Notes: a model not told the origin generated them from the letters alone. DNA of 32,502 nucleotides from a virus (IMGVR_UViG_2778261222_000005), one strand, 5' to 3'; numbered from the stretch's first letter, positions 1 to 12,275 are shown. Program-made: numbers and translations.

Positions 1-237
1 ATGATGGTTAGAAATGAAGTAATGAACAAAGACTGGCACCGCGAGTACATCGTTGCCGCTGTGCACACCAAAGGTTTTACATTGCGTGAACTTTCTGAAC
101 GCGCTGGTCTAAAAAAAGACTCTTTAAAAAATGCACTGTATCGCTCATGCCCTAAATATGAACGCATCATAGCCGATGCTATTGGTGTGGAACCTGCGGA
201 GATCTGGCCAAGCCGGTATGCCAGTAAGGCGGCGTAA
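1..237 (+). CDS. ner: Ner-like DNA-binding regulator
   Basis: 78-aa ORF; C-terminal ...AIGVEPAEIWPSRYA resembles the conserved Ner/Nlp family tail (recalled, not searched). Its stop overlaps the start of a MuA-like transposase (TAATG), the canonical Mu ner-A arrangement. ORF begins at window position 1, so the true start may be upstream. Confidence 0.8.
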   Translation: MMVRNEVMNKDWHREYIVAAVHTKGFTLRELSERAGLKKDSLKNALYRSCPKYERIIADAIGVEPAEIWPSRYASKAA

Positions 238-2279
238 TGTTTTATTCAGCCAATGAGCTGGCCGGTCTTCCTGGTTTGCCCGGTACAGTTCAGGGGGTGC
301 GCTGGACGCTCAATCGGATCACAGAGACGCACCCGGAATGGAAGCGCAAGCGCGAAGGCACCAAAGCATTCGAGTATCACATCGACTGCCTGCCCGCTGA
401 AGCGCAGAAAGTTTTACGTAAGCGCCTGACCCATCAGGTCCTGGAAGATACGCAACTGCCCGCCGTGGTTGAGCAGAAGGCAGTTAAAAACGTCGCCGTT
501 CGCGATGAACTGGAGGTGATGGTCAAATGCCCGGAGCTGGCATTACGCGAAGTCCAGTCACTGACCGACAAGCAAAAGGCCATCGCTGATGCGCGGATAT
601 TGCTGGCTACTGAAGTGCATAAGCTGCGCGAGTATGCCGGAATGACCAGGAAGTCCGCTTTAAAGCACATCGTTGATGGTGTGCGCATGGGGGCGTTACC
701 TGACCGCATTATCGAAGCAGCTAATACTGCAAATGCACGTCAGGGAAAGCGAACCGGTGTCAGCACCGGCAGCCTGGATAGCTGGTACTCCAGCTGGGTG
801 ATGGCGCGCGGTGATGCCAATCAGTTACTGGCGTTACTGGCTCCCGGTCATCATAAGGGAACACCGTGGGAGCAGGTCTGGTGGTTGAGCGATTTCTTTA
901 TGTTCTATCGCTCATGGAAGCGCCCGACTGTTGAATATGCGTATCGTGAGTTTTCAGCCTGGTGGCATGAAAAACACGCGAATGATGCGGGAATGCTGGC
1001 GGCACTGCCTTCAGTTCACGCAGTAAGACGGGTGTTAAGCAGCGTCCCGGTGATTGTTAAAGAGCGTTTCCGCTCCACCGGTTCAGCCTGGCGTTCGCTC
1101 AATCCCTTTGTGCGGCGCGACTGGACATCATTACCGGTTAATGCGGTATGGGTCGGGGATGGTCACTGTATGAAAATGACCGCGTTTAACCCCCTGACCG
1201 GCAATATTTTCCGGCCAGAAGTGACGCTGGTTATGGATGCGGGGCAACGCTTTATTGTGGGCTGGTCACTGTCCCTGTCGGAGAACGTGATAGCCGTTGC
1301 TGATGCGTTACGTTACGGCATGGCGCAGCACGGGATACCGCTGATTTATTACTCCGATAACGGGGGCGGTGAAAAAAACCGGGTGCTTGATGCCGATATT
1401 ACCGGGATTCTGCCCCGGCTGGGTGTGGAACATCACACGGGGATACCAGGTAACCCGCAGGGGCGCGGGGTGATTGAACGGGCAAACAAAGGAATACCCA
1501 AAGACGTGGCTCTGAGTTTCCAGACGTACTGCGCAAGGGATGCAGACAAGGAAACCGTAATGATGCAGCAACGGATTATGCAGTCAGCCATTAAGGCCAC
1601 CCACAAAGGGAAAGAGCTGACAAAACGGCAGGTTAAGGCGAGGGATGAAATCCCTACCTTTGAGCAACTGATGGCAGCCATAGAGCTGGAGGTCAGACGC
1701 TATAACAACCGGCCACACAGCAGCCTACCCCGCAAAGAGGATGGCGAATATTACAGCCCGGCAGCGTATCGCCGGAAACTGATAAAAGAGCAGAATGTTG
1801 AAATTGATTTCCTGTCGCCGGAAGAACTGCATGAAATGTTCAGACCGGAAGTGACGCGCAAAACATTTCGCGGGGAAATTCAGTTATTCAACAATATTTA
1901 TTACTCATATGATCTGGCCGCAGAGCACGGGAATGAAGTCAGGGTCAGTTACGATATTCATGATGCAAACAGCGTCATTGTCCGGCGGGCTGATGGCTCT
2001 TATATCTGCGATGCCATCTGGAACGGTAACAAGGTTGATGCCTTCGCTAAACCAGTTATCGAACAAAAACTGGAGAAACGCGTCAGGGGCCGCATTGCAC
2101 GGGCCACGCAGAAAATCGAAGAGGCTAAACGCGAGCTTACCCCGGCCATTACGCAGAAGCCTGACTTTAATCTGGGATATGGACTGGAACGCCCGGAGAA
2201 AAAGGAAAAAGAAGAACTTTATTTATTCGCATCTGAACGCGAACGCAATTTAAAGAAAAACGGCACAAACAACCGTTAA
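237..2279 (+). CDS. Mu A-like DDE transposase
   Basis: 680-aa ORF, size and layout like MuA; N-terminal end-binding-like region followed by a catalytic core (WVGDGHCMKMTAF..., ...YYSDNGGGE...). Followed directly by a MuB-like ATPase gene. Confidence 0.9.
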   Translation: MFYSANELAGLPGLPGTVQGVRWTLNRITETHPEWKRKREGTKAFEYHIDCLPAEAQKVLRKRLTHQVLEDTQLPAVVEQKAVKNVAVRDELEVMVKCPELALREVQSLTDKQKAIADARILLATEVHKLREYAGMTRKSALKHIVDGVRMGALPDRIIEAANTANARQGKRTGVSTGSLDSWYSSWVMARGDANQLLALLAPGHHKGTPWEQVWWLSDFFMFYRSWKRPTVEYAYREFSAWWHEKHANDAGMLAALPSVHAVRRVLSSVPVIVKERFRSTGSAWRSLNPFVRRDWTSLPVNAVWVGDGHCMKMTAFNPLTGNIFRPEVTLVMDAGQRFIVGWSLSLSENVIAVADALRYGMAQHGIPLIYYSDNGGGEKNRVLDADITGILPRLGVEHHTGIPGNPQGRGVIERANKGIPKDVALSFQTYCARDADKETVMMQQRIMQSAIKATHKGKELTKRQVKARDEIPTFEQLMAAIELEVRRYNNRPHSSLPRKEDGEYYSPAAYRRKLIKEQNVEIDFLSPEELHEMFRPEVTRKTFRGEIQLFNNIYYSYDLAAEHGNEVRVSYDIHDANSVIVRRADGSYICDAIWNGNKVDAFAKPVIEQKLEKRVRGRIARATQKIEEAKRELTPAITQKPDFNLGYGLERPEKKEKEELYLFASERERNLKKNGTNNR

Positions 2280-2297
2280 TTTAAAAGGTATTTAATT

Positions 2298-3191
2298 ATG
2301 AGTTTAATTACGCAATTAAATGACGTAATGGCCCGTCGCGGCTATACGCAAACCCACGTCGCCCGTGCTATTGGTCGTAGCAGCGCCGTTATCAACCAGT
2401 ATTTACAGGGTAAATATCAGGGCGATATGGCTGATATTGAAGAACGCATTTCTGCCTTTGTGACCCGTGAGCGGGAAAAGGAAAACAGCCGCCGTATTAA
2501 AGCGAAATTTGTTGCCACCGGTATGGCTGCCAAAGGACTGGAGGTGTTGGCCTATGCTCACCTGGAATGTGAAATCTGCGTACTGTATGGCGCGGCAGGT
2601 CTTGGCAAAACAATGATTCTGCGTGAATACGCCGCCAGAAACCGGGATGCGGTCCTGATTGAAGCCGACCCGGGCTATACAGCCAGAACACTGCTTGAGG
2701 AGCTGTGCCGCCAGCTGGGGGTAAAAGTTCGCGGCAATATCCACGAACTGATTGATGCATGTGTGCGAGAACTGCGTGATTCCGGTCGCCTGCTGATGGT
2801 GGACGAGGCTGAACTGCTCCCCTATCGCGCACTGGAGGTTCTGCGCCGTCTGCATGACAAAGCGGGTATCGGGATTGTCCTGGCGGGTATGCCACGCCTT
2901 CTGATTAACCTCAAGGGACGTCGCGGTGAGTTCGCCCAGTTATACAGCCGTGTGGCGCTGGCGCTTAACCTGGGTGATACGCTGGCGCAGGAAGATTTTA
3001 ACCAGATAGCCACCGGGCTGATGCCGGAAGCAGCAGAGCCGGAAATCAGCGAGGCGCTTTATACACGTTCGCTGGGTAATGCCCGCCGCCTGTTCAAACT
3101 GGCGCGTGGTGTGTACCGGATTTGTGATATCAGCGATGCGCCGGTCAGTGTGCAGGCCATTGATAAATTCGCAGAAATGTTAATTCACTGA
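2298..3191 (+). CDS. Mu B-like AAA+ ATPase (transposition target-DNA activator)
   Basis: 297 aa; N-terminal HTH-like segment, Walker A GAAGLGKT, Walker B-like LLMVDEAE; located immediately after the transposase; AAAAGG RBS 9 nt upstream. Confidence 0.85.
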   Translation: MSLITQLNDVMARRGYTQTHVARAIGRSSAVINQYLQGKYQGDMADIEERISAFVTREREKENSRRIKAKFVATGMAAKGLEVLAYAHLECEICVLYGAAGLGKTMILREYAARNRDAVLIEADPGYTARTLLEELCRQLGVKVRGNIHELIDACVRELRDSGRLLMVDEAELLPYRALEVLRRLHDKAGIGIVLAGMPRLLINLKGRRGEFAQLYSRVALALNLGDTLAQEDFNQIATGLMPEAAEPEISEALYTRSLGNARRLFKLARGVYRICDISDAPVSVQAIDKFAEMLIH

Positions 3192-3205
3192 TGGAGAATA
3201 AGACG

Positions 3206-3430
3206 ATGGACAAGCAGACCATTAACGCCGTCCGTTCCCGTGCCCGTGTGGCCATTCACACCACCGGCGGTCGTGTAACGGGACAGCATCACCGTTTACC
3301 TGTGGTTTATGCCTGCCCGCCCGTGGGTGGTCCTGTATGGCCGGTAACGGAAATCGTCCAGACATTCAGCGGCCTGCGCCGCGTGGTGAAAACGTCCTGT
3401 ATCGACGGCTGCACCGTCGTATGGCAATAA
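3206..3430 (+). CDS. hypothetical small protein (early accessory region)
   Basis: ORF track gives 3191..3430; ATG at 3206 is preferred because GGAGAA lies 8 nt upstream. No recognisable family. Confidence 0.45.
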   Translation: MDKQTINAVRSRARVAIHTTGGRVTGQHHRLPVVYACPPVGGPVWPVTEIVQTFSGLRRVVKTSCIDGCTVVWQ

Positions 3431-3442
3431 GAGGAAATCAGA

Positions 3443-3658
3443 ATGGCGGTCAAGTTAGAAGTAATTATCTACACCGATGAAAACGGCACGCTTCGTGTCA
3501 GGAGTATGGGGGCTATTGATAAAAAAGGATTTACGGATGAAGAGGTCGGTGTAAGACAACGGTTATGGGAGGTAATGAATCAAACTCTTAATAAAGAATT
3601 TAACGGCGTTGATTTATTTTCTGTTGGCGTGGAACCCTGCGCGCATAACACACATTAA
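3443..3658 (+). CDS. hypothetical small protein
   Basis: 71-aa ORF with AGAGGAAA RBS just upstream; same strand and spacing as neighbours. Confidence 0.55.
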   Translation: MAVKLEVIIYTDENGTLRVRSMGAIDKKGFTDEEVGVRQRLWEVMNQTLNKEFNGVDLFSVGVEPCAHNTH

Positions 3659-3687
3659 TCTGTAAATATCACTGAGGTAATTTAATT

Positions 3688-4332
3688 ATGACGACTGAAA
3701 ATAAAGTTAAGCAATACACGAAAACTCAAGCGCCTGAAGGTTACTGGGTGGATGCCCGTGGCGTAATGACACCTGAAAGCCTTATCAAAGATATTGACCG
3801 CGACCGCGAGCAGCTGGTCGGTGAGCTTGTGGAGATGGTGATTGCTGCCTCCGCCTCACTGCGGGAACTGAAACTGCGTGCGTTTGGTGATATCCAGGCA
3901 TTTATTGACTTGTCGGCGGAGAAATACGGCGCTGTGAAAGGCGGCAAAAAAGGGAATATCACGCTTTACAGCTTTGACGGGCGTTACAAGATTCAGCGCG
4001 CCATGCAGGACCGTATCGCGTTTGATGAACGCATTCAGACCGCGAAGTCGCTGATTGATGATTGCCTGGCTGACTGGACGGAAGGTGCACGTCCTGAAAT
4101 CAAAGCCATCATCAGCGAGGCATTCAGCACGGACAAGGAAGGCAACATTAACACCGGGCGCGTTCTGGCCTTGCGTCGCCTTGAAATTGAGGACGAACGC
4201 TGGAATAACGCCATGACGCTGATTGGTGAAGCCGTCCAGGTGATTGGCAGCAAGAGCTATATTCGTGTGTATGAGCGCGTCGGCGATTCTGACGAATATC
4301 GCGCAATCCCGCTTGATATTGCAGGGGTTTAA
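3688..4332 (+). CDS. hypothetical protein, possibly DUF3164-like (typical Mu-like early gene)
   Basis: 214-aa ORF with GAGGT RBS. Family label rests on recalled size and position downstream of B in Mu-like prophages, not on a search. Confidence 0.65.
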   Translation: MTTENKVKQYTKTQAPEGYWVDARGVMTPESLIKDIDRDREQLVGELVEMVIAASASLRELKLRAFGDIQAFIDLSAEKYGAVKGGKKGNITLYSFDGRYKIQRAMQDRIAFDERIQTAKSLIDDCLADWTEGARPEIKAIISEAFSTDKEGNINTGRVLALRRLEIEDERWNNAMTLIGEAVQVIGSKSYIRVYERVGDSDEYRAIPLDIAGV

Positions 4333-4333
4333 C

Positions 4334-4567
4334 ATGCATCAGGATATCAAAGAGTACAGAGCCGGGAACCGTTGCGCGGCGTATTCACTGGGAGCGTCAA
4401 GAGCTGAACAGCGCGGTGATTATGCCGAGGCTGAAAAGCTGTGGCGTAAGGCAGCACAAAGCCCGTGTAGCACCCTGCGCCGCATCTGGGCTGAACATCG
4501 TGCGGAGTTCTGCGCTAACGCTCACCTGAAGGGATGGAGGCCACGCCATGAATGCGAAAAACTTTAA
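4334..4567 (+). CDS. small protein, possibly ANR-family-like regulator
   Basis: ATG at 4334, 2 nt after the upstream stop; the track's longer 4244 start would overlap the previous gene by ~90 nt. Small helical protein (...AEQRGDYAEAEKLWRKAAQS...) of the kind annotated ANR family in Mu-like prophages (recollection). Confidence 0.45.
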   Translation: MHQDIKEYRAGNRCAAYSLGASRAEQRGDYAEAEKLWRKAAQSPCSTLRRIWAEHRAEFCANAHLKGWRPRHECEKL

Positions 4568-4739
4568 TAAGTTATATCCGCCTGGTACTCGTTTCATGCA
4601 CATTGCACATCAGGCAGTGCGTGGTGGGCGGGTGGTAAAAACTGTTGCACCGGCCAGAGATTTTAAATGTGGTTGTGTGGTTGAAATTAATGTCGAGCCT
4701 TATTTCGTAAAAGTCGAAACACTGAAAGCACCGCATTAA
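4548..4739 (+). CDS. hypothetical small protein
   Basis: 63-aa ORF; GGAGG 7-11 nt upstream of the ATG; overlaps the previous ORF end. Confidence 0.5.
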   Translation: MNAKNFNKLYPPGTRFMHIAHQAVRGGRVVKTVAPARDFKCGCVVEINVEPYFVKVETLKAPH

Positions 4740-4770
4740 TTTAATTTGTTTTTAATTGTTATTTAAAACA

Positions 4771-4800
4771 GGCGTAAACCCGCCGGGGCTGGCTTACGCC
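4771..4800 (-). terminator. hairpin terminator serving the convergent minus-strand gene
   Basis: GGCGTAA...TTACGCC inverted repeat with a GC-rich interior. A T-run follows the hairpin only when read on the minus strand (plus-strand A/T-rich 4741-4770); on the plus strand it is followed by TGAATCTGAGG with no U-run. Confidence 0.45.
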
Positions 4801-4879
4801 TGAATCTGAGGAAGTTTATTTATGAATATCGCTAAGCAGAAAAAATTCGCCCGCGAAATTAATCTGACAATCGTTTGTT

Positions 4880-5098
4880 TTAATCGTCTTGCGACCAGTT
4901 CTCAATCGACAGCAGATGTTCATCCAGCGCCGCAGCCAGAACGAACTCCCCACGTTCCTGAAGGCCGTGCTGGAAGTTGCGTAATTCAGAATCCAGGGCG
5001 CTGAGGTTCAGACAGCCATTTTCTGAAAGCTGTTTAACCAGAAAACTCCACGCAGCTTTGTTAGCAGTAATTGCTGCCGCAATTTCATCATCAATCAT
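4880..5098 (-). CDS. hypothetical small acidic protein encoded antisense to the early operon
   Basis: 72-aa ORF; AGGAG 7 nt upstream of its ATG on the minus strand; ends ~80 nt before the hairpin at 4771-4800. Competes with a 60-aa plus-strand ORF (4822..5004) whose C-terminus is Pro/Arg-rich and looks like out-of-frame sequence. Confidence 0.5.
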   Translation of the reverse strand: MIDDEIAAAITANKAAWSFLVKQLSENGCLNLSALDSELRNFQHGLQERGEFVLAAALDEHLLSIENWSQDD

Positions 5099-5186
5099 TT
5101 TTTAACTCCTGATTGGGTATGTTGGGGCAGCGATTATGACAAGCGTTTTGTGGTTATAAGTTGATCAAAAACAATGAGTTACAACC

Positions 5187-5897
5187 ATGAAAGATAAATA
5201 CATTGCCAAAATCAAAAAACTGTTACGCCTTGCCAGAGGAACATCAAGCCCGGAAGAAGCCGCTAACGCTATTGCAAAAGCCCAGGCTTATATGCGCCAG
5301 CATGGTATCAGCGAAAACGACGCGGAATTGTTCGACATTCAGGAAGCTGCCAGCGCGGGTGCGCCGAGTGACGCCAGTACGCCGCCGCTTTATATGCACA
5401 TCCTGTGTGACCTGGTCTGTAAAGCCTTCGGCGTCGAGTGTTACATCTCCGGTGAGTACCGGGCTTCTGGTTCACTCAAACGTCACGTGCGTTTTTATGG
5501 CTCTGACAGCCGCCCGGAAATCGCGGCTTACGCGTTTGATGTGCTTTCCCGTCAGATGATGGCTGAACGCAAGAAATATCAGGATAAACACTGCAAACGT
5601 TGCGGCCCGTCCACGCGGGTGGCCCGTGGCGACCAGTTCTGCGAAGGCTGGGTCTTTGGTGCCCGTGATGTCATTGCGGTGTATGACGTCTCCCCGGAAG
5701 AAAAAAGCCGCCTTGAGCTTTACAGAAAGAACCTGCACAGCACTAAGGGGCTGCGCGACGGGGATATGCGCACAGCTAAAGCGTGCCGGGGTGCAGAGTT
5801 TGCCGCTACAGCCGGTTTTATCGCCGGGAAAAACGCCAGACTGCATCAGGGGGTTAATGGTCAGAGCAACAGACCGCTGGCACTGGGGAGGGTGTAA
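5187..5897 (+). CDS. DUF2786-like protein
   Basis: 236 aa; N-terminus IAKIKKLLRLARGTSSPEEAANAIAKAQAYMRQHGI matches the recalled DUF2786 helical signature; C-terminal half has a Cys cluster (HCKRCG...QFCEGW). Confidence 0.7.
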   Translation: MKDKYIAKIKKLLRLARGTSSPEEAANAIAKAQAYMRQHGISENDAELFDIQEAASAGAPSDASTPPLYMHILCDLVCKAFGVECYISGEYRASGSLKRHVRFYGSDSRPEIAAYAFDVLSRQMMAERKKYQDKHCKRCGPSTRVARGDQFCEGWVFGARDVIAVYDVSPEEKSRLELYRKNLHSTKGLRDGDMRTAKACRGAEFAATAGFIAGKNARLHQGVNGQSNRPLALGRV

Positions 5898-5899
5898 CG

Positions 5900-6127
5900 A
5901 TGGCTTTTAAACTTCTCAGTGTTACCGAAGCAATATACCAGCCGCCCGGAGAACGCCACGAATACAGGATGAATGACGGTAGCGCGGTGGTTGAGTTCCC
6001 CGGATATCCGGGGGCTTCCCGGTGGCGGTTCTATGACAGTGTGGGACGTCGGATTATTAAAAGAACCGTGCACAACAATATGAAGGCTGCCGTAGAACGT
6101 CATAAGAGAAGGTTTAACTGCAAATGA
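5900..6127 (+). CDS. hypothetical small protein
   Basis: 75-aa ORF starting 3 nt after the previous stop; no family recognised. Confidence 0.45.
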   Translation: MAFKLLSVTEAIYQPPGERHEYRMNDGSAVVEFPGYPGASRWRFYDSVGRRIIKRTVHNNMKAAVERHKRRFNCK

Positions 6128-6354
6128 AAATTGAATTTTATGACCATGGGGTCACCGCAACTATCACTATTTCTTGTTGGTTCTGGGAGTTCCACCGTTA
6201 CTTCAGAGTTGTAGATGCTGCGCTGTTTGTTGCACCGGGAGCGTTACATCACAGTGGAATCGGTATTGTTATGAACACTGTCATCAGCGGTAAAACGGTC
6301 CCGATGTTGCGGGCGTTTAAAGTGGCAAAACAGGAGGCTGGCAATGGTCATTGA
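6124..6354 (+). CDS. hypothetical small protein
   Basis: 76-aa ORF overlapping the upstream stop (ATGA); hydrophobic segments. Confidence 0.4.
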   Translation: MKIEFYDHGVTATITISCWFWEFHRYFRVVDAALFVAPGALHHSGIGIVMNTVISGKTVPMLRAFKVAKQEAGNGH

Positions 6355-6634
6355 TAAAACGATAACGATAGATGTAGCCATGAATGCAGGCATCGCTCTT
6401 CTCGGTTGGTGTTACATCATGCTCCGCGCCGGGATGTGGCTGTCCCTTGTATTTCTGAAAACATGGAATAAGCACCGTAAACAGACGCAGCAGCAGAAGG
6501 CGATGAATGCGTTCTTTGAGGCCTTCGATATCGACAGCATAGAGCCGGGAGAACCAACCCGCGTCATCCCCGTAGGTGATGTCGTGATTTTGGTATACCG
6601 GAGTGAAAAAAATAAACAGGAGGCGGCGCAGTGA
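6344..6634 (+). CDS. hypothetical membrane protein
   Basis: 96-aa ORF; predicted TM segment (GIALLGWCYIMLRAGMWLSLVFL) followed by a soluble tail. Confidence 0.5.
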   Translation: MVIDKTITIDVAMNAGIALLGWCYIMLRAGMWLSLVFLKTWNKHRKQTQQQKAMNAFFEAFDIDSIEPGEPTRVIPVGDVVILVYRSEKNKQEAAQ

Positions 6635-6795
6635 ACCAGCAAACCAGAATAAGCGATAAGAGCCTGACCAGACTGATTGCCGATGCGGACAAGGTGCTGG
6701 AGCGGAACACACCCGTTGCCGATGAGGAATGGTGGCAGGATTTCTGGGCTGCAATGCTGGAACTTCAGGAACGTCGTCGGGAGGAGTTGAAGTGA
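6631..6795 (+). CDS. hypothetical small protein (54 aa, not in the supplied ORF track)
   Basis: GTG start overlaps the upstream stop (GTGA); AGGAGG 7 nt upstream; reads MNQQTRISDKSLTRLIADADKVLERNTPVADEEWWQDFWAAMLELQERRREELK to a TGA that overlaps the next GTG start. Confidence 0.45.
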   Translation: MNQQTRISDKSLTRLIADADKVLERNTPVADEEWWQDFWAAMLELQERRREELK

Positions 6796-7061
6796 GTGAA
6801 TTAAAGTGTCGAATTAATGGCAATCAGATAGAACCGTGTGCGGTACTGGCAAAAGCACTCGAATATGGAAATCCAGCCTTTAAGAGTAAAGGCATATTTA
6901 TCCCGGAACGCGTGAATATAAACACCGGCGAGCCAGGCTTAGACATTGCTCAAATTCACTCCGGCCAATATGTCGGTCGTGGTGTTGCCATGTGTTTTTG
7001 CCCGTTCTGTGGTGAAAGTCTGAAAACATGGAAAAAGGAGGCAACCAGTGAGCGAGATTAA
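6792..7061 (+). CDS. hypothetical Cys-containing small protein
   Basis: GTG at 6792 with GGAGGAG 5 nt upstream, preferred over the track's 6729 start, which would overlap the previous gene. C-terminal CFCPFC motif plus two N-terminal Cys suggest a metal-binding ribbon (inference). Confidence 0.5.
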   Translation: MSELKCRINGNQIEPCAVLAKALEYGNPAFKSKGIFIPERVNINTGEPGLDIAQIHSGQYVGRGVAMCFCPFCGESLKTWKKEATSERD

Positions 7062-7716
7062 CTATCAGGCACTGCGTGAGGTGGCAGAGGCCGCGAAGGG
7101 GGATACGACGTGGCAGAACCTACAGGCTTTTCATGCTGCGGCTACGCCGGAGGTTGTGCAGGCGTTGCTGGATGAAAACGAAAGACTGTGTCGCGAGCTG
7201 ATAGCTCGTAATGGTGAGATTGAAGGGCTTCGGAAGTGGGCAGAAGAACTGGAGGCACGGGAGGTGGCTTTGCCAGTAGCGTCATGCATTGTTGAAGATG
7301 GATGCATGTGTGTTGATGGGTTCAGTGAGTATGTAGGTCACTCGCTACCTGATGGAATGCATGAGCTTTATGCTGCCCCGCCAGCGTCGGTAGTGCCGGA
7401 AGGACTAGTTAAAGCAGTGCGTTTCTATGAACAGGTAAAGTGTGAGAATCCGCCAGTCGAAACCGGAGCATGGAAAGACGCGGTTGACTGGGTGCTCAAC
7501 GAGGCTTGCCAGGCTGTAAATATTGACGGCCAAAGGAGGTGCGTAATGCGTGTAGCGTTTATCGGTTTATTACCATACCCGACTCGTTTTTGGGCTTCTG
7601 CGCTAATTGCAAAGCCGCATGCCCTGATGGCTGACAGCATCATCCCGGCACCAAAGCGCCATACCGGTATTGCTGCTGCACGACGCGAAGCAAAGAAACG
7701 CAGGAGAGCAAAATGA
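7048..7716 (+). CDS. hypothetical protein (possibly ead/Ea22-like)
   Basis: 222-aa ORF; N-terminal coiled-coil-like segment, Cys-rich middle (CIVEDGCMCVDG), basic C-terminus. Family label is a weak recollection. Confidence 0.6.
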   Translation: MSEINYQALREVAEAAKGDTTWQNLQAFHAAATPEVVQALLDENERLCRELIARNGEIEGLRKWAEELEAREVALPVASCIVEDGCMCVDGFSEYVGHSLPDGMHELYAAPPASVVPEGLVKAVRFYEQVKCENPPVETGAWKDAVDWVLNEACQAVNIDGQRRCVMRVAFIGLLPYPTRFWASALIAKPHALMADSIIPAPKRHTGIAAARREAKKRRRAK

Positions 7717-7901
7717 TGAAAAACCGTAAGGCAAGACTGCTGATAGCAAAGCCAGGGCAACTTATCCGTATCTCAAATCGACTTGTTGTTCGCTATAGAT
7801 ATCTTGGTTTTAGGGAGTGGTCCTCTATTCGTTTTTACGGTGTCTGGCGAAACAGAAGCGCGACACAAAACCGCTGGAAGAATCACACTAACGCAAAGTA
7901 A
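7713..7901 (+). CDS. hypothetical small basic protein
   Basis: 62-aa ORF overlapping the upstream stop (ATGA); Arg/Trp-rich, low-complexity, AT-rich codons; may not be translated. Confidence 0.3.
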   Translation: MMKNRKARLLIAKPGQLIRISNRLVVRYRYLGFREWSSIRFYGVWRNRSATQNRWKNHTNAK

Positions 7902-7968
7902 TTAAATAATAACCAATAGCAGACCAAAAAGTATTTTTTGGCCTGCCAAAAGTGATGTTTTGGTCATT

Positions 7969-8247
7969 ATGAAGATTGAACAAATCGGAATGGCAGCTTT
8001 CAGGCAACAGGCTGAAAGCGGTGGCGTGGATGAGTTCGTCGTGCAGCGGTTCGGTGGTGTGTATCACCTCTTCGCTGTGAATCGCCGCGCCGGGGTGTCC
8101 TATTTTCTACAGGAACGCCGTGGCGATTACAAGACGTGGTTGTCTCTTGACCGTGCCGCTGCGTTCTTGTCAGGGATTGGCGTTTCACGTTTTACCGTGC
8201 GTTTTGAGGATAACAAACATGCTGAAAAAGATGATCGGGGCCATTAA
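7969..8247 (+). CDS. hypothetical protein
   Basis: ORF track start 7960 is a TTG; first ATG is at 7969. No clear SD. Overlaps the gemA-like start by 29 nt. Confidence 0.4.
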   Translation: MKIEQIGMAAFRQQAESGGVDEFVVQRFGGVYHLFAVNRRAGVSYFLQERRGDYKTWLSLDRAAAFLSGIGVSRFTVRFEDNKHAEKDDRGH

Positions 8248-8617
8248 AGCTGGTCAGGCGTATCTGGGGTGGGATGATGCCCTTTATCGCCAGACGCTGG
8301 CCCGCCTGACCGGTAAAACCAGCACCACACGCTGCAATCTCGATGAACTGCGCATCATCCGGGAATACATGCACGAACAGGGATTCCCGCGCAAGGCACC
8401 CGCCGGTAAAGGTCGCCGCCCTCGTGTTGCAATGAGCAGAAAATCAGTATTATCCAAAATTGAAGCGTTGCTGGCTGATGCAGGTCGTTCCTGGGCGTAT
8501 GCAGAAGGACTGGCATCTCACATGTATAAGCAACATGTGATCGAATGGCTGACGGATGAACAGCTTTTTGGAGTGATGGTGGCGCTGGTTAAAGATTCAA
8601 GAAGGAGAAATCAATGA
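8219..8617 (+). CDS. gemA: GemA-like protein (Mu gp16 family, DUF1018)
   Basis: ATG at 8219 with GAGGA 8 nt upstream; N-terminus MLKKMIGAIKAGQAYLGWDDALYRQTLARLTGKTSTTRCNLDELRIIREYMHEQGF follows the recalled GemA pattern. Track ORF 8120..8617 is the same frame with an earlier, less likely start. Confidence 0.75.
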   Translation: MLKKMIGAIKAGQAYLGWDDALYRQTLARLTGKTSTTRCNLDELRIIREYMHEQGFPRKAPAGKGRRPRVAMSRKSVLSKIEALLADAGRSWAYAEGLASHMYKQHVIEWLTDEQLFGVMVALVKDSRRRNQ

Positions 8618-9090
8618 TGAAAAAATGGTTGTTTTGTTTAGTAGGGGTTATTTTCTCTTGTTCTGTGCTGGCACAGACAGAGGAACAGGCGCAAAAGGAA
8701 CTGAAACGTTATCAGGATATGAAGCCATTGGCTGAACAGATGCTTCGGGAAAGTGGAAAACTTTATTACGCTATGCCAGAAGCTGCATCGCAATATCAGC
8801 AGGGAAATATTGAAGAGTGGAAGAATATCAAAAAAGGACTAAAACAACTGGATGAACAGGCCAGTAAACTGGGGGACGACCCGCTTGATCCTGTGTATGG
8901 TTCCTGCATAAAAATGAAAAACCAGCTACAGGATTACTGGTCTAACGTTATCAGGGATGACAGGCAGTTTCTGGAGCGTTCAAGAAATCAGTTTAAAGAA
9001 TATCGTATGGATTGTTTTGATTCGTTTGTTTTTGGTAAAGAGCAAATAGAATCAAGAAAAGGCCTGGTTATTCTAGACCTGACTAAATAA
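8614..9090 (+). CDS. secreted or lipoprotein-like protein of unknown function (AT-rich moron)
   Basis: 158 aa; N-terminal signal peptide MMKKWLFCLVGVIFSCSVLA with a possible lipobox-like FSC; gene is visibly more AT-rich than its neighbours (by eye, not computed); followed by a strong intrinsic terminator. Confidence 0.7.
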   Translation: MMKKWLFCLVGVIFSCSVLAQTEEQAQKELKRYQDMKPLAEQMLRESGKLYYAMPEAASQYQQGNIEEWKNIKKGLKQLDEQASKLGDDPLDPVYGSCIKMKNQLQDYWSNVIRDDRQFLERSRNQFKEYRMDCFDSFVFGKEQIESRKGLVILDLTK

Positions 9091-9100
9091 GACTTAGTTT

Positions 9101-9127
9101 AGCCCCTGCCATGCAGGGGCTTTTTTT
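9101..9127 (+). terminator. rho-independent terminator
   Basis: Perfect 9-bp stem AGCCCCTGC / GCAGGGGCT with 3-nt loop, followed by TTTTTTT. Confidence 0.8.
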
Positions 9128-9129
9128 GT

Positions 9130-9165
9130 GGTCTGTACAGGCGATCATGTATGGCTATAATAACA
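9130..9165 (+). promoter_or_regulatory. candidate promoter for the Mor/C-family activator gene
   Basis: Perfect TATAAT hexamer at 9156-9161, between the upstream terminator and the activator start. The -35 is poor (TGTACA-like with 15-bp spacer), so the promoter may be activator-dependent. Confidence 0.35.
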
Positions 9166-9190
9166 GTAAGTTACTACCGGAGACGCCATC

Positions 9191-9658
9191 ATGCAGACCT
9201 TCAGTGAAACAGATCTTCGCGATGCGCAGGCACTGCTGCCCGATTCCGTGCAGCAACTGATTAGCGTGATTGGCTTCCCCGCCCTGACCCGGTTGATTCG
9301 TTCTTTTGGTGGCGTGACGTTAAGCGGTAAAACCGGCGTACACGCCGAACGCACTGGCGGTGTCCATGCCATGTTACATGACGTGCTGACCGAAGACGAA
9401 ATCAACAAACTGATCCGTTTTCTTGGCGGCGCACCGTTTTACATTCCCCGTTGCGATCATGCGTTACGTGCCCTGCGTAACACCCGTTTTATGGCTGATT
9501 TACAGCAGCATGTAAAAGGCGGATGCTCACACCGGCAGGCGCTGGCACTGCTCTGTCCCCGTTACGGCATTTCAGACCGGTACGCATGGCAGCTGATACA
9601 CCGACGACAAAAACAGACTTCGCTGAAAAGCCCCACCCAGGTGGGGCTTTTTGATTAA
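9191..9658 (+). CDS. Mor/C-family transcriptional activator
   Basis: 155 aa; central LGGAPFYIPRC and C-terminal HTH-like region (ALALLCPRYGISDRYAWQLIHRR) resemble the recalled Mu Mor/C signature; GGAG 9 nt upstream. Only one Mor/C-like gene is visible in the window. Confidence 0.8.
   Translation: MQTFSETDLRDAQALLPDSVQQLISVIGFPALTRLIRSFGGVTLSGKTGVHAERTGGVHAMLHDVLTEDEINKLIRFLGGAPFYIPRCDHALRALRNTRFMADLQQHVKGGCSHRQALALLCPRYGISDRYAWQLIHRRQKQTSLKSPTQVGLFD
9627..9652 (+). terminator. intrinsic terminator embedded in the 3' end of the activator gene
   Basis: Stem GCCCCAC / GTGGGGC with short loop followed by TTTTT; overlaps the last codons of the activator gene (stop at 9656-9658). Confidence 0.6.
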
Positions 9659-9685
9659 TGGGCCTCAGAAAAAAGGAGACACGAA

Positions 9686-9973
9686 ATGATGCGTTCTGAC
9701 ACCGATATCGACTATGCAGTACTCGGTGAATATACCGCATTTTCAGACAAGGCCCGGGATGCAGCCCGTCGCCGACATGCTGAAATGTGCAGTTTATCCA
9801 GTTACCTGGCGAAACAGGCCCAAAGCCCGGAATCAGTAACGAATCATGATGAAGTGCTGTCAGCCGTAAACAGAATGATTGACGCAGAACGGGAAATGCG
9901 TAATGCCGTGGAAAGAGCTAACCTGCTGGCGCGGGCATGTTATAAGCCACCATTAAAACTCGCTTCTCTTTAA
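9686..9973 (+). CDS. hypothetical protein
   Basis: 95-aa ORF with AAGGAGA RBS; helical, no family recognised. Confidence 0.55.
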   Translation: MMRSDTDIDYAVLGEYTAFSDKARDAARRRHAEMCSLSSYLAKQAQSPESVTNHDEVLSAVNRMIDAEREMRNAVERANLLARACYKPPLKLASL

Positions 9974-9996
9974 CCCATCCAGATAATCAACCTGCC

Positions 9997-10015
9997 GGGG
10001 GTGCTGAACACCCCC
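9997..10015 (+). promoter_or_regulatory. conserved late-promoter motif, copy 1 (upstream of lysis cassette)
   Basis: GGGGGTGCTGAACACCCCC; core GTGCTGAACACCC (10001-10013) is identical to copies at 18160-18172 and 30076-30088. Flanks form a 7-bp inverted repeat around CTGAA. Downstream CAGTACCC is shared with copy 2. Confidence 0.5.
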
Positions 10016-10161
10016 AGCAGTACCCACCACAGCATACCGTTTACCCTGTCCACTCAGACCACAAGACACCTTAAGGGATAGCGCCCGGCAAAAGTCATTC
10101 TGTGCCTTTGACCGGGTGTTATTTACGGGCCGTCAGTGGCTCAGATTTACAGGAGAAACTC

Positions 10162-10554
10162 ATGTCTGAACCCTTATCAGGCGGCGGAGCTGTGGCAGTC
10201 ACCATCGGTGGTGCCAGTGTGTTTGGCCTTCTCACCAATACCGATTTCGGGGTTGTGGTGGGCGCGTTTGCCGGAGCGCTTTTTGTTGTCACGCAGCAGA
10301 AAGAAATCCCGGTATGGCGAATGGCTATTCATCTGCTCGTCGCGTTTGTGGTTGGCGTTCTGGGGGCTGGCGTGGCTGCGTCACTGATGCAGTGGCTGAC
10401 CCACTACAACGACAAGCCGCTCGATGCATTGTGTGCGGTCGGTGTCTCGGCGTTATCCATCAAGATACTGACCTTTCTTTATCAACAGGAAATTTCATCG
10501 CTGTTCGGCCTGTTTTCCAGACTGCGCGGCGGAGGGGGGGGAAATGGAAAGTAG
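10162..10554 (+). CDS. holin-like membrane protein
   Basis: ATG at 10162 with AGGAG RBS (track start 10102 is an upstream GTG); ~131 aa with several Gly/Ala-rich TM segments; sits just upstream of the endolysin. Confidence 0.55.
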   Translation: MSEPLSGGGAVAVTIGGASVFGLLTNTDFGVVVGAFAGALFVVTQQKEIPVWRMAIHLLVAFVVGVLGAGVAASLMQWLTHYNDKPLDALCAVGVSALSIKILTFLYQQEISSLFGLFSRLRGGGGGNGK

Positions 10555-10840
10555 CCTTGCCGGTATCGTGAACGTCTGGCTGTGTCTCGCCATTGTGCTG
10601 GGGTTGTTTGTGTATCGCCGCCACGGTGCGGCGCATAAACCGATGATTACCTGGCTGGCGTACTGGCTGATGCTCGGCTACGTCATCATCCCGTTCCGCT
10701 GGCTGTCCGGTACATACACGCACTCCAGTTGGCTGGTTGTGGCGCTGAATCTGGTTTTCTGTGCGCTTATCGTGTGGGCGCACGGGAATTTGTCAAAAAT
10801 CCTTTCGTTACTGAGGCATCCACATGAAATCAAAAGATAA
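10544..10840 (+). CDS. second holin/antiholin-like membrane protein
   Basis: 98 aa with 2-3 predicted TM helices; GGAGGGGGGG RBS; overlaps the previous gene end and the endolysin start. Confidence 0.5.
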   Translation: MESSLAGIVNVWLCLAIVLGLFVYRRHGAAHKPMITWLAYWLMLGYVIIPFRWLSGTYTHSSWLVVALNLVFCALIVWAHGNLSKILSLLRHPHEIKR

Positions 10841-11369
10841 AATTTTTGATGAAGTCCTGGGCAAAGAAGGCGGTTATGTCAATCACCCGGATGATAAGGG
10901 CGGTCCGACCAAATGGGGCATTACGGAAAAAGTCGCCCGCGCCCACGGATACCGTGGCGATATGCGCGATTTAACCCGCGAACAGGCGCTGGACATCCTT
11001 GAAGCCGATTACTGGTATGGCCCGCGATTTGACCAGATCGCCGCATTATCCCCTGATATTGCCGCAGAGCTGTGTGATACCGGTGTGAATATGGGGCCAA
11101 CCGTGGCGTCCAGAATGCTTCAGCGCTGGCTGAATGTGTTCAATCTGCGCGGCAGGCTGTACCCGGATATGGACGCAGACGGACGCATCGGGCCTCGTAC
11201 CATCAGTGCATTGCGCGCCTTCCTGAATAATCGCGGTCAGGACGGTGAACGGGTGATGCTGACGGCCCTGAACTGTACGCAGGGGGACCGCTATCTGGAA
11301 CTGGCGGAGAAACGCGAGGCTAACGAATCGTTTGTTTATGGCTGGCTGAAGGAGCGCGTGGCGATATGA
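10824..11369 (+). CDS. endolysin, GH108-type N-terminal domain with peptidoglycan-binding C-terminal region
   Basis: 181 aa; N-terminal EGGYVNHPDDKGGPTKWGIT matches the recalled GH108 signature (EGGYxxxxxDxGGxTxxGIT); position after holins. Confidence 0.85.
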   Translation: MKSKDKIFDEVLGKEGGYVNHPDDKGGPTKWGITEKVARAHGYRGDMRDLTREQALDILEADYWYGPRFDQIAALSPDIAAELCDTGVNMGPTVASRMLQRWLNVFNLRGRLYPDMDADGRIGPRTISALRAFLNNRGQDGERVMLTALNCTQGDRYLELAEKREANESFVYGWLKERVAI

Positions 11370-11548
11370 CGCGTCAGCACTGGACCCACAGAACGCCACG
11401 TAAAGCCGCGCGCTGTGTTCTGGCCCTGTTTCTGGTGATGTTGCTTCCGGTGGGATGCACAGACATTAACAGAACGGGACAGCTGTTAGACGCGGCGGCG
11501 CAGGTCTGCCGGATTATTGACGGCATCCGGCAGTGTTCACAGAACTGA
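11366..11548 (+). CDS. small lipoprotein, possible o-spanin-like lysis protein
   Basis: 60 aa; start overlaps the endolysin stop (ATGA); signal peptide with lipobox-like LPVGC. No obvious partner i-spanin seen. Confidence 0.4.
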   Translation: MTRQHWTHRTPRKAARCVLALFLVMLLPVGCTDINRTGQLLDAAAQVCRIIDGIRQCSQN

Positions 11549-11568
11549 TTTTTCGAAGGTCTGACACA

Positions 11569-11775
11569 GTGAGCATTATCAGATTTACAGAATACAGAGG
11601 TTCAGGAGGTGCTGGCGCTGTCATGGTGCTCGCTGAACGCATCACCCATTTTTACCGTCAGTACGGTACACATGATGGCACGGTCATTGAACTGGATACC
11701 GGGAAAAACGTGTTTGTTCTTGAAAATCCCGACGAAGTTCAGCGCAGGATTGAACAGGCTCAGAAGGACACTTAA
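11569..11775 (+). CDS. hypothetical protein (start uncertain)
   Basis: Frame open from GTG 11533; GTG 11569 and ATG 11623 (AGGAGGT 12 nt upstream) are alternative starts. No TM or lipobox, so unlikely to be an i-spanin. Confidence 0.35.
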   Translation: MSIIRFTEYRGSGGAGAVMVLAERITHFYRQYGTHDGTVIELDTGKNVFVLENPDEVQRRIEQAQKDT

Positions 11776-12275
11776 TGGCGTGGTCACAGGATATCAGGGA
11801 CAAAGTCCGTAACGGGTACATCTTTGACCAGCTTCCGCTGGATATCGTCGCCATGAAATACGCCGTGCCGCACGATACCGCGCGGCGCTGGAAAACGCAG
11901 GCGATGAAGAACGGCGACGACTGGGACAAGCTGCGGGCCGCTCACGCGCTCGCCGGTGACGGGCTGGAAAGTGTCGCCCGCACCGTACTTATCAGTCTGG
12001 TGGTGAAGTGTCAGACGACGCTTGAGCGGCTGAACCAGAACCCGGACATCCCGCCGCAGGAGTCCGTCGAACTGCTGGCGAGTCTGTCTGACAGTCTCAG
12101 TAAGGCGGTGGCCAGCAGCAAAAAAATCCTGCCGGAAACCGATCGGCTCGCCACGGCACTGGAAGTGGTGCAGCGGCTCGGCGCGTTCATCAAGGAGCGT
12201 CACCCGGCACAGTATGCCCCGTTTCTTGAGGTGCTCGAAGGCTTCGCTAAAGAGCTTGAGGATAATTTCAGTTAA
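11775..12275 (+). CDS. putative terminase small subunit (Mu gp27-like, DUF1804-type)
   Basis: 166 aa with an N-terminal HTH-like segment; located immediately upstream of the terminase large subunit region. Family name recalled, not searched. Confidence 0.55.
   Translation: MAWSQDIRDKVRNGYIFDQLPLDIVAMKYAVPHDTARRWKTQAMKNGDDWDKLRAAHALAGDGLESVARTVLISLVVKCQTTLERLNQNPDIPPQESVELLASLSDSLSKAVASSKKILPETDRLATALEVVQRLGAFIKERHPAQYAPFLEVLEGFAKELEDNFS

Follow-up and report, generated by a model that had tools for sequence, protein, structure and literature searches.

In phage Mu the semi-essential region of the early operon runs from kil to gemA (Mup05-Mup16), lies after B and before gemA/mor, and consists of compactly coupled genes with kil first, gemA last and one small gene (gp15) in the opposite orientation. 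A related arrangement is found in Pseudomonas phage B3 and the B3-like phages (ORF10 to ORF1), where B, small open reading frames (ORFs), a DUF3164 protein (ORF6), a DUF2786-type protein (ORF5, whose counterpart in JBD25 is annotated PF10979), GemA and Mor follow one another and no Gam is annotated. Two further described systems bear on this locus: the exo-xis/ea22 region of lambdoid and Shiga toxin (Stx) phages, and the ANR (AraC negative regulator) family (Aar, Rnr), whose described members are virulence regulators that accompany AraC-type activators, with three predicted alpha-helices and with H-NS, Ler or AraC-type proteins as binding partners. Here we analyse positions 3191-9128 of IMGVR_UViG_2778261222_000005, a viral DNA stretch of 32,502 nucleotides (nt) that we refer to, at its full length, as the window. 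We conclude, with a probability of about 0.8, that this block makes up the semi-essential portion of the early operon in a Mu-like transposable Escherichia coli prophage and is built from a conserved backbone and four exchange slots. Overall the block is an unexceptional example of a region type already known, and it would be dispensable for plaque formation, the sense in which we call it semi-essential.

The block matches the Mu-like prophage in eutC of enteropathogenic E. coli (EPEC) E2348/69 (NC_011601 / FM180568, ~2.716-2.75 Mb) at 95.3% DNA identity over the full query (3191-7190) and has the same gene set and the same ner-to-mor gene order, including rev72, the Ea22 allele and sp158 (genes are named as in Table 1). 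The two differ in that the Ea22-like and 56-amino-acid (aa) genes are separate in E2348/69 and fused in the window, and in their DUF4752 alleles, which are 58% identical at the aa level. With Mu the block shares position, strand, compact coupling, the placement of kil and gemA at its ends and the presence of one oppositely oriented small gene, whereas within the semi-essential region only Kil and GemA are homologous, and the whole window has only ner, A, B, kil, gemA and mor in common with Mu. In place of the Gam and gp6-gp14 genes of Mu the window carries DUF3164, Rnr, DUF2786 and Ea22-region genes, and its mor gene, unlike that of Mu, appears to have its own promoter behind a terminator. The window has the DUF3164, DUF2786, GemA, Mor order in common with B3. 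DNA identity with B3 (~67%) is confined to DUF3164; B3 lacks Kil, Rnr, the palindrome and the Ea22 cassettes, and host and virion type differ. The likeness to the lambdoid/Stx region lies in DNA patches within 6360-7750 and in the N-terminal and coiled-coil part of the Ea22-like protein (PF13935), whereas the C-terminal domain encoded in the window is unlike the solved domain of lambda Ea22 (PMC10834534), the genes belong to the operon of a transposable phage and do not lie in an exo-xis interval, and orf60a, orf61, orf63 and orf73 were not found in the window. The ANR protein differs from described family members in being the product of a coupled phage early gene, and the ORFs scanned included no AraC-family gene. 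Related versions of the block occur in 321 of 5426 complete E. coli genomes.

Results

Layout of the block and evidence for coding

The window opens with ner, A and B, and gemA and mor follow the accessory genes, so that its gene order (ner-A-B...gemA-mor) is that of a full-length transposable-phage genome. Together with the Pfam assignments, this order bears out the placement in a Mu-like semi-essential region that had been proposed in the initial annotation, a reading of the window made from its sequence alone. The B-to-gemA interval holds 14-15 plus-strand ORFs (15-16 genes in all), with junctions of -20 to +29 nt, many ATGA/GTGA overlaps and, for the most part, overlaps of 1-20 nt or gaps no larger than 29 nt. 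The tight coupling of about fifteen small ORFs described in the initial annotation therefore stands, but the array is not unbroken: it is interrupted by a gap of 447 nt (4740-5186), where a palindrome is conserved and where a gene on the minus strand (4880-5098) had been missed.

All plus-strand ORFs between B and gemA except one match a PHROG family, with E values from 1e-9 to 1e-94, and the family assignments that had been called weak are in fact strong (DUF3164 2.9e-81, DUF7168 3.5e-28, ANR 57 bits, Kil 1.2e-37, DUF4752 3e-36). Substitutions relative to E. coli relatives are concentrated at codon position 3 in kil (22/24), DUF3164 (51/64), ANR (30/37), DUF2786 (56/75), p7844 (17/22) and p9400 (16/24), and the ORFs are therefore genuine genes under selection; the same pattern indicates purifying selection on the backbone genes, which are kept across genera at 30-77% aa identity. 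At least three of the genes are not uncharacterised, as had been supposed, given that Kil, Rnr and Ea22-like proteins have studied relatives, and homology with these characterised proteins supports the earlier suggestion that the block carries host-interaction cargo. The ORFs did not all prove to be characterised replication or recombination proteins.

Profile searches thus recovered strong families, while searches for relatives of solved structure returned none: sequence searches with seven proteins (DUF2786, DUF3164, the Ea22 fusion, p4030, rev72, p7844 and ANR) gave nothing meaningful, and a fold search with two modelled proteins found no solved-structure relative. An Rfam search of window positions 1-12000 gave chance-level matches only, and a literature search on DUF3164, DUF2786, DUF4752, DUF7168 and DUF7448 found no functional study.

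Conserved backbone and exchange slots

About 230 related loci were compared overall, among them eight E. coli prophages that were tiled against the window and a wider set of 84 species-level loci found through DUF3164. This comparison separates a conserved backbone from four variable slots. Conserved in all eight E. coli relatives are 3100-3400, 3600-4800, 5200-6150, 6600-6700, 7900-8550 and 9100-9650; variable among them are 3400-3600, 5000-5190 (present in 3/8), 6350-6500 and 6800-7000 (2/8), 7050-7550 (1/8), 7700-7850 (3/8) and 8600-9090 (1/8). The backbone comprises kil, DUF3164, rnr, p5591, the palindrome, DUF2786, p9400, p7844 and gemA, and the slots lie between kil and p7438 (slot 0), between the palindrome and DUF2786 (slot A), from p1001 to p7844 (slot B) and between gemA and the terminator (slot C). 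Slot 0 holds extra genes of 83 and 63 aa in STEC316 and STEC313, and the alternative cassettes seen in relatives all belong to PHROGs of unknown function.

Across the 84 loci the backbone extends to DUF2786 (32 loci), p5591 (27, by tblastn, across Enterobacterales), ANR (16), p9400 (15, in other genera) and kil (8), and the other block genes are confined to E. coli prophages. In the E. coli relatives p9400 is mostly left unannotated by the Prokaryotic Genome Annotation Pipeline (PGAP).

DUF3164 at the position of Gam

No ORF matches Gam (PF07352), the DNA-end-binding inhibitor of host nucleases, in Pfam at E <= 0.1, and Mu Gam searched with tblastn against the whole window gives a best E of 0.18, in agreement with the initial annotation, which had recognised no Gam-like nuclease inhibitor. 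DUF3164 and Gam co-occur in none of 220 loci. All 84 loci found through DUF3164 (L001-L084) carry DUF3164 and no Mu Gam, all 80 found through Mu Gam (L150-L229) carry Gam and no DUF3164, and the 56 found through the palindrome (L094-L149) include 50 with DUF3164, five with Gam and none with both. Those five (L094, L096, L110, L113 and L145) have the order B-kil-...-Gam-ANR-...-palindrome-DUF2786-...-gemA, in which Gam, represented by at least four different alleles, takes the exact position of DUF3164; ANR was detected in four of the five, and 20 nt separate the two genes in L096, Gam coming first. This mutual exclusivity, combined with the presence of Gam at the DUF3164 position, makes DUF3164 a candidate replacement for Gam.

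Such a replacement would be a non-homologous one. The alignment of DUF3164 with Gam by hhalign has a probability of 0.15%, and the AlphaFold2 model of DUF3164 (predicted local distance difference test score 77) has no fold match in the PDB or BFVD, the Gam fold (PDB 2p2u) included. DUF3164 is widespread in phages (>3000 clusters), and a paper on DUF3164-bearing roseophages likewise remarks on the absence of Gam.

kil and rnr

The start of kil overlaps the stop of B, and kil is present in 8/8 E. coli relatives. Its product matches the PHROG family annotated 'Kil protein' over its full length and Mu Kil by phmmer (E 8e-5), and from sequence and position it is predicted to be a septation inhibitor.

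The product of rnr (~8.9 kDa) covers positions 2-52 of 54 of the NF033650 profile and is identical at 73 of 77 residues (95%) to E2348C_RS14140, encoded at 2721409-2721642 of E2348/69 (rnr = E2348C_2635). The rnr deletion described in PMC10148876 has exactly these coordinates, which fall within the early operon of the E2348/69 Mu-like prophage, and that paper is without any mention of phage. By its sequence the window ORF is the orthologue of Rnr of EPEC and Citrobacter rodentium, and at 77 aa it fits the description of ANR proteins as small proteins under 10 kDa (PMC4983702). Rnr of E2348/69, an anti-virulence regulator, binds H-NS and Ler in two-hybrid assays, controls >500 host genes, among them those of the locus of enterocyte effacement (LEE) and of PerA and the bundle-forming pilus (BFP), and lowers colonisation (PMC10148876); binding to H-NS and Ler would be expected of the 95%-identical window protein as well.

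In every examined relative where it was detected, rnr lies directly downstream of DUF3164 or Gam. It is translationally coupled in the early operon and conserved in prophages of non-pathogens. An iterative search with a hidden Markov model (HMM) that appeared to place ANR in 75 loci was rejected as an artefact, because the ANR entries of the ORF database reached upstream across the 3' end of the conserved DUF3164 gene, read out of frame. A further ANR protein, WP_012904653.1, lies at 4644-4877 of a prophage of the mouse strain E. coli M8 (L004). Its accession number falls in a range that we take to be that of C. rodentium, which would suggest that the rnr gene of that species (ROD_02851) lies in a similar Mu-like prophage.

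The 4740-5186 gap: palindrome, rev72 and orf60+

The palindrome is found as GGCGTAAACCCGCNGGGGCTGGCTTACGCC, exactly conserved, in loci of Escherichia, Buttiauxella, Trabulsiella, Phytobacter and Kosakonia and in 56 IMG/VR contigs, and the proteins that flank it in those genera are only 40-70% identical. It lies 18-21 nt upstream of the DUF2786 start in 22 loci; in 37 others the spacing is 98-1461 nt, filled by cargo and often including a second palindrome copy, and duplicated palindromes flank larger cassettes. A structured RNA was considered and rejected, as the palindrome shows no covariation or compensatory changes, has no Rfam match and has a folding z-score of only -1.1. An attC-type integron site was likewise set aside, the arms GGCGTAA / TTACGCC being, by eye, unlike RYYYAAC / GTTRRRY cores; no tyrosine recombinase or integron integrase was seen among the early-region ORFs scanned.

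The minus-strand gene of the gap, rev72, encodes a protein with a net charge of about -9, has AGGAG 7 nt before its ATG and is annotated by PGAP in relatives; on its strand the palindrome and then GTTTTAAAT follow downstream. An exhaustive HMMER search returned homologues of 37-61% identity, all 75-77 aa long, one of them in a Mu-like prophage (L093), where it lies between DUF3164 and DUF2786 and again runs opposite to the operon. The same site in AVS0151 holds a distant homologue of 86 aa, a relationship missed by BLASTP and shown by scored alignment (score 66 against 22.6+-4.0 for shuffles, 0 of 2000 of which reached it), and minus-strand ORFs from prophages of Hydrogenophaga and Paludibacterium are likewise recovered with a rev72 profile. 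A word-indexed search returned near-identical proteins only, and tblastn of rev72 and orf60+ against 50,697 phage records gave no match. On sequence comparison the rev72 family is rare, with position and opposite orientation kept in other Mu-like prophages; it is not related to gp15, the minus-strand early gene of Mu. The gene probably has its own expression signals and may be expressed independently of the operon.

Antiparallel to rev72 and overlapping it, orf60+ has no family match in Pfam or PHROGs. Of its variable sites, 14/24 fall at plus-frame codon position 3, and in at least 8 loci a microhomology deletion of 167 nt (5020-5186) has left it as the only one of the two ORFs; it may be translated too.

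Slot B and the Ea22-like gene

The 222-aa ORF at 7048-7716, which the initial annotation had singled out as one protein, is an Ea22-like gene fused to a 56-aa gene, because of a single extra G near 7528 that shifts the frame by 1 nt. In the same DNA of E2348/69 a 165-aa Ea22-like protein ends within the AAGGAGG-N-ATG that starts a separate 56-aa gene, and the window copy of the 56-aa gene retains its own AAGGAGG-ATG. The extra G could be a sequencing error or a genuine frameshift mutation. The 56-aa gene also stands alone in phiV10, TL-2011c and RCS47, with which its DNA is ~90% identical. Residues 2-96 of the Ea22-like protein match PF13935 at 57.3 bits (cut-off 27), covering the N-terminal domain and coiled coil, and its middle and C-terminal part matches PHROGs 26213 and 660; no PDB sequence match to Ea22, whose lambda C-terminal domain was solved by nuclear magnetic resonance, was found at E <= 1. 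The Ea22 family has been linked to the lysis-lysogeny decision and is pro-lysogenic (PMC10834534).

Slot B is also the part of the block most visibly shared with other phages. Patches of 80-90% DNA identity to window positions 6360-7750 occur in >400 phage records, the partners being mostly lambdoid/Stx phages (early-left ea22 region), with P1-like and epsilon15-like phages and a few virulent phages, while among the eight E. coli relatives the Ea22-like allele occurs only in E2348/69. The DUF4752 allele and p4030 each occur in 2/8 relatives, and p4030 is 87.7% identical at the DNA level to phage PH444. Residues C6, C16, C70 and C73 of p4030, a protein singled out in the initial annotation for its Cys cluster, are conserved in its three true homologues, and the pattern makes p4030 a probable small zinc-binding protein. 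The C-terminal Cys cluster of the DUF2786 protein, likewise flagged as notable, did not hold up, its CxxC being absent as a conserved feature from 48 homologues.

Two features of the DNA were seen at the joints of slot B. At 7040-7061, four loci (L002, L086, L090 and L091) keep the last ~10 residues (...KEATSE(Q/R)D) of the gene preceding the Ea22-like gene, the rest of that gene being unrelated, and the overlap there has the look of a joint at which modules recombine. At the right edge, a 14-bp A/T-rich inverted repeat (7917-7948) lies in the 67-nt gap before p7844, and the DNA around it is conserved in 8/8 relatives.

Slot C and the end of the operon

In some relatives slot C is empty, in others it holds a gene for a protein of 112 or 174 aa, and in the window it encodes sp158, which is present only there and in E2348/69. 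This gene lies on the early-operon strand without its own promoter, its start overlapping the gemA stop by 4 nt, and its product has no Pfam, PHROGs, NCBIfam or PADLOC match. Behind the terminator, a strong one, lies a promoter-like site for mor (9134-9161, TGTACA-16-TATAAT). Terminator and site are invariant in five aligned relatives, in which the upstream DNA varies, and the presence of this promoter-like site suggests that mor, in contrast to mor of Mu, is not part of the early transcript.

Table 1. Features of the block and its flanks in window coordinates; ner, A, B, gemA and mor were assigned from the ORF map and Pfam.
Feature	Coordinates	Strand	Description
ner	1..237		
A	237..2279		transposase, Mu-type
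B	2298..3191		AAA+ protein
kil	3191..3430	+	predicted Kil-family septation inhibitor, 79 aa, directly 3' of B; PGAP start 3206; phrog_2679
p7438	3443..3658	+	71 aa; phrog_7438 E 4.5e-21; matched in 5-6/8 relatives
DUF3164	3688..4332	+	214 aa; PF11363; backbone
rnr	4334..4567	+	ANR family, 77 aa; NF033650, cut-off 32 bits
p5591	4548..4739	+	63 aa; phrog_5591 E 2.2e-41; backbone; 20-nt overlap with rnr
palindrome	4771..4800	no strand	30 nt, GGCGTAAACCCGCCGGGGCTGGCTTACGCC; left border of slot A
orf60+	4822..5004	+	60-aa ORF, good Shine-Dalgarno sequence; coding status uncertain
rev72	4880..5098	-	72 aa, acidic helical protein; slot A cargo; divergent from DUF2786
DUF2786 + DUF7168 protein	5187..5897	+	236 aa; DUF2786 E 5.2e-13; backbone
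p9400	5900..6127	+	75 aa; phrog_9400 E 1.6e-39; backbone
p1001	6124..6354	+	76 aa; phrog_1001 E 4.2e-29; divergent alleles, 69-100% aa identity in L001-L004
DUF4752	6344..6634	+	96 aa, hydrophobic N-terminus; PF15944; slot B cargo
p14672	6631..6795	+	54 aa, GTG start; phrog_14672 E 8.3e-33; matched in 7-8/8 relatives
p4030	6792..7061	+	89 aa, four conserved Cys; phrog_4030 E 5e-29; slot B cargo
Ea22-like gene body	7048..7545	+	165 aa in E2348/69; PF13935 Ead_Ea22 E 3.4e-15
56-aa basic-tailed protein	7546..7716	+	phrog_13831 E 2e-34, profile 1-57 of 58
p1380	7713..7901	+	62 aa, basic; phrog_1380 E 9.6e-10; slot B cargo, 3/8 relatives
p7844	7969..8247	+	92 aa; phrog_7844 E 7e-64; backbone, 8/8 relatives; overlaps gemA start
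gemA	8219..8617		
sp158	8614..9090	+	158 aa, N-terminal signal peptide; slot C cassette
intrinsic terminator	9101..9128	+	9-bp stem, 7 GC pairs, T7 run
mor	9191..9658		

Discussion

The layout presented here provides a framework for how a Mu-like early region may combine inherited and exchangeable functions. Gene order, coupling and the terminator suggest that the early promoter (Pe) would drive the block together with ner-A-B, with transcription ending at 9101-9128 and most genes translationally coupled. On induction, Kil would stop cell division, DUF3164 could take the role of Gam in protecting phage DNA ends from host nucleases, and GemA would act as a modulator of host expression. Rnr would bind silencers of the H-NS family and could counteract H-NS silencing on behalf of the phage; since the Mu early promoter is repressed by H-NS, a positive feedback loop through Rnr is conceivable. 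Slot cargo, including the Ea22-like protein, may tune the lysis-lysogeny decision or other host interactions, the small genes being gained, lost and swapped at the slots through conserved junction sequences while the backbone would be inherited vertically. The placement as a Mu-like semi-essential early region with partly turnover-prone cargo is right, as the initial annotation had it.

Several observations sit less comfortably with this account. The likeness between DUF3164 and Gam is one of position, with no similarity in sequence or fold, so their swap could be an exchange of unrelated cargo, and their mutual exclusivity partly follows phage lineage. The Rnr phenotype was recorded in uninduced E2348/69 cultures (PMC10148876), which is unexpected for a gene of a repressed early operon and requires an internal promoter or leaky expression. 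The palindrome could be a terminator or barrier within the operon, rev72 has no sigma-70 consensus promoter, with a possible extended -10 seen by eye only, and the frameshift between the Ea22-like and 56-aa genes hints at some decay, or at a sequencing error.

A bolder reading, which we put forward tentatively and consider less probable than not, makes DUF3164 a Gam stand-in of new structure that forms with rnr, its constant downstream neighbour, a conserved two-gene unit by which Mu-like phages of the B3 type would disarm nucleases and xenogeneic silencing, with rev72 representing a family of small acidic proteins, encoded against the operon in the adjoining palindrome-bounded slot, that acts on immunity or defence. 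In such a unit DUF3164 could be an inhibitor of RecBCD or other host nucleases, or a protector of DNA ends.

It is also possible, if doubtful, that rev72 and sp158, and maybe rnr, are lysogenic-conversion or defence morons, expressed from the prophage for the benefit of host or prophage rather than for lytic growth, with superinfection exclusion, virulence tuning or toxin neutralisation among the possible benefits. The opposite strand of rev72, its own Shine-Dalgarno sequence, the palindrome downstream on its strand and the orientation kept by its family in other Mu-like prophages are all consistent with this, as are the signal peptide of sp158 and its place at the very end of the operon, and deletion of rnr in a lysogen alters virulence-gene expression and colonisation (PMC10148876, PMC4038620). 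Set against these points, rev72, its 86-aa homologue and sp158 have no PADLOC match, sp158 shares the strand of the early operon, lacks its own promoter and overlaps the gemA stop, and rnr is a translationally coupled early-operon gene kept in prophages of non-pathogens as well.

Host immunity offers another explanation, which we regard as unlikely: the small genes that vary in slots 0, A, B and C would for the most part encode inhibitors of it, exchanged among coliphages in an arms race. Turnover at these fixed slots is high, with alleles present in only 1-3 of 8 close relatives, cassettes are common to unrelated phage types, and the proteins are small, predicted to be expressed early and of unknown function; rev72 is acidic enough to be, in principle, a possible DNA mimic. 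Comparable turnover is typical of morons and of accessory genes with regulatory roles, however, and the proteins yielded neither a solved-structure match nor an annotated PHROG match. PADLOC gave no match at E <= 0.1 for twelve window proteins, a set that leaves aside p5591, p9400, p14672, p1380, orf60+ and gemA, and only one chance-level match (E 0.065) for eight alternative cassette proteins; to our knowledge no block protein matches any characterised anti-defence protein. The one studied slot B family, Ea22, is tied to the lysis-lysogeny decision and not to immunity (PMC10834534). The anti-defence cargo proposed in the initial annotation thus found no direct support, and the best indirect lead is a gene that it had not singled out, DUF3164, whose position is that of Gam, an anti-nuclease with reported anti-defence activities (10.1101/2024.04.14.589459).

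That the small ORFs are functionless remnants of a defective prophage is very improbable: the frameshift that fuses two genes, the truncated rev72 and pseudogene calls in relatives and the ORFs left unannotated by PGAP point that way, but the synonymous bias at codon position 3 in nearly every ORF largely refutes decay, and PHROG families that span full protein lengths, a backbone conserved across genera and the full-length transposable-phage layout of the window all argue against it.

In summary, the region described here, read as the semi-essential part of the early operon in a Mu-like prophage, closely duplicates a prophage segment known from a reference EPEC genome, and the fixed positions and exchange slots of this prophage family are now mapped, the slots being the first places for anti-defence screens. 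DUF3164, a very widespread phage domain, gains a concrete and testable role as a stand-in for Gam. For rnr of EPEC, and presumably of C. rodentium, the genomic setting is now a transposable prophage, whose early operon holds the gene beside the position of Gam or DUF3164; this phage context recasts the questions of what the gene is for and how it comes to be expressed.

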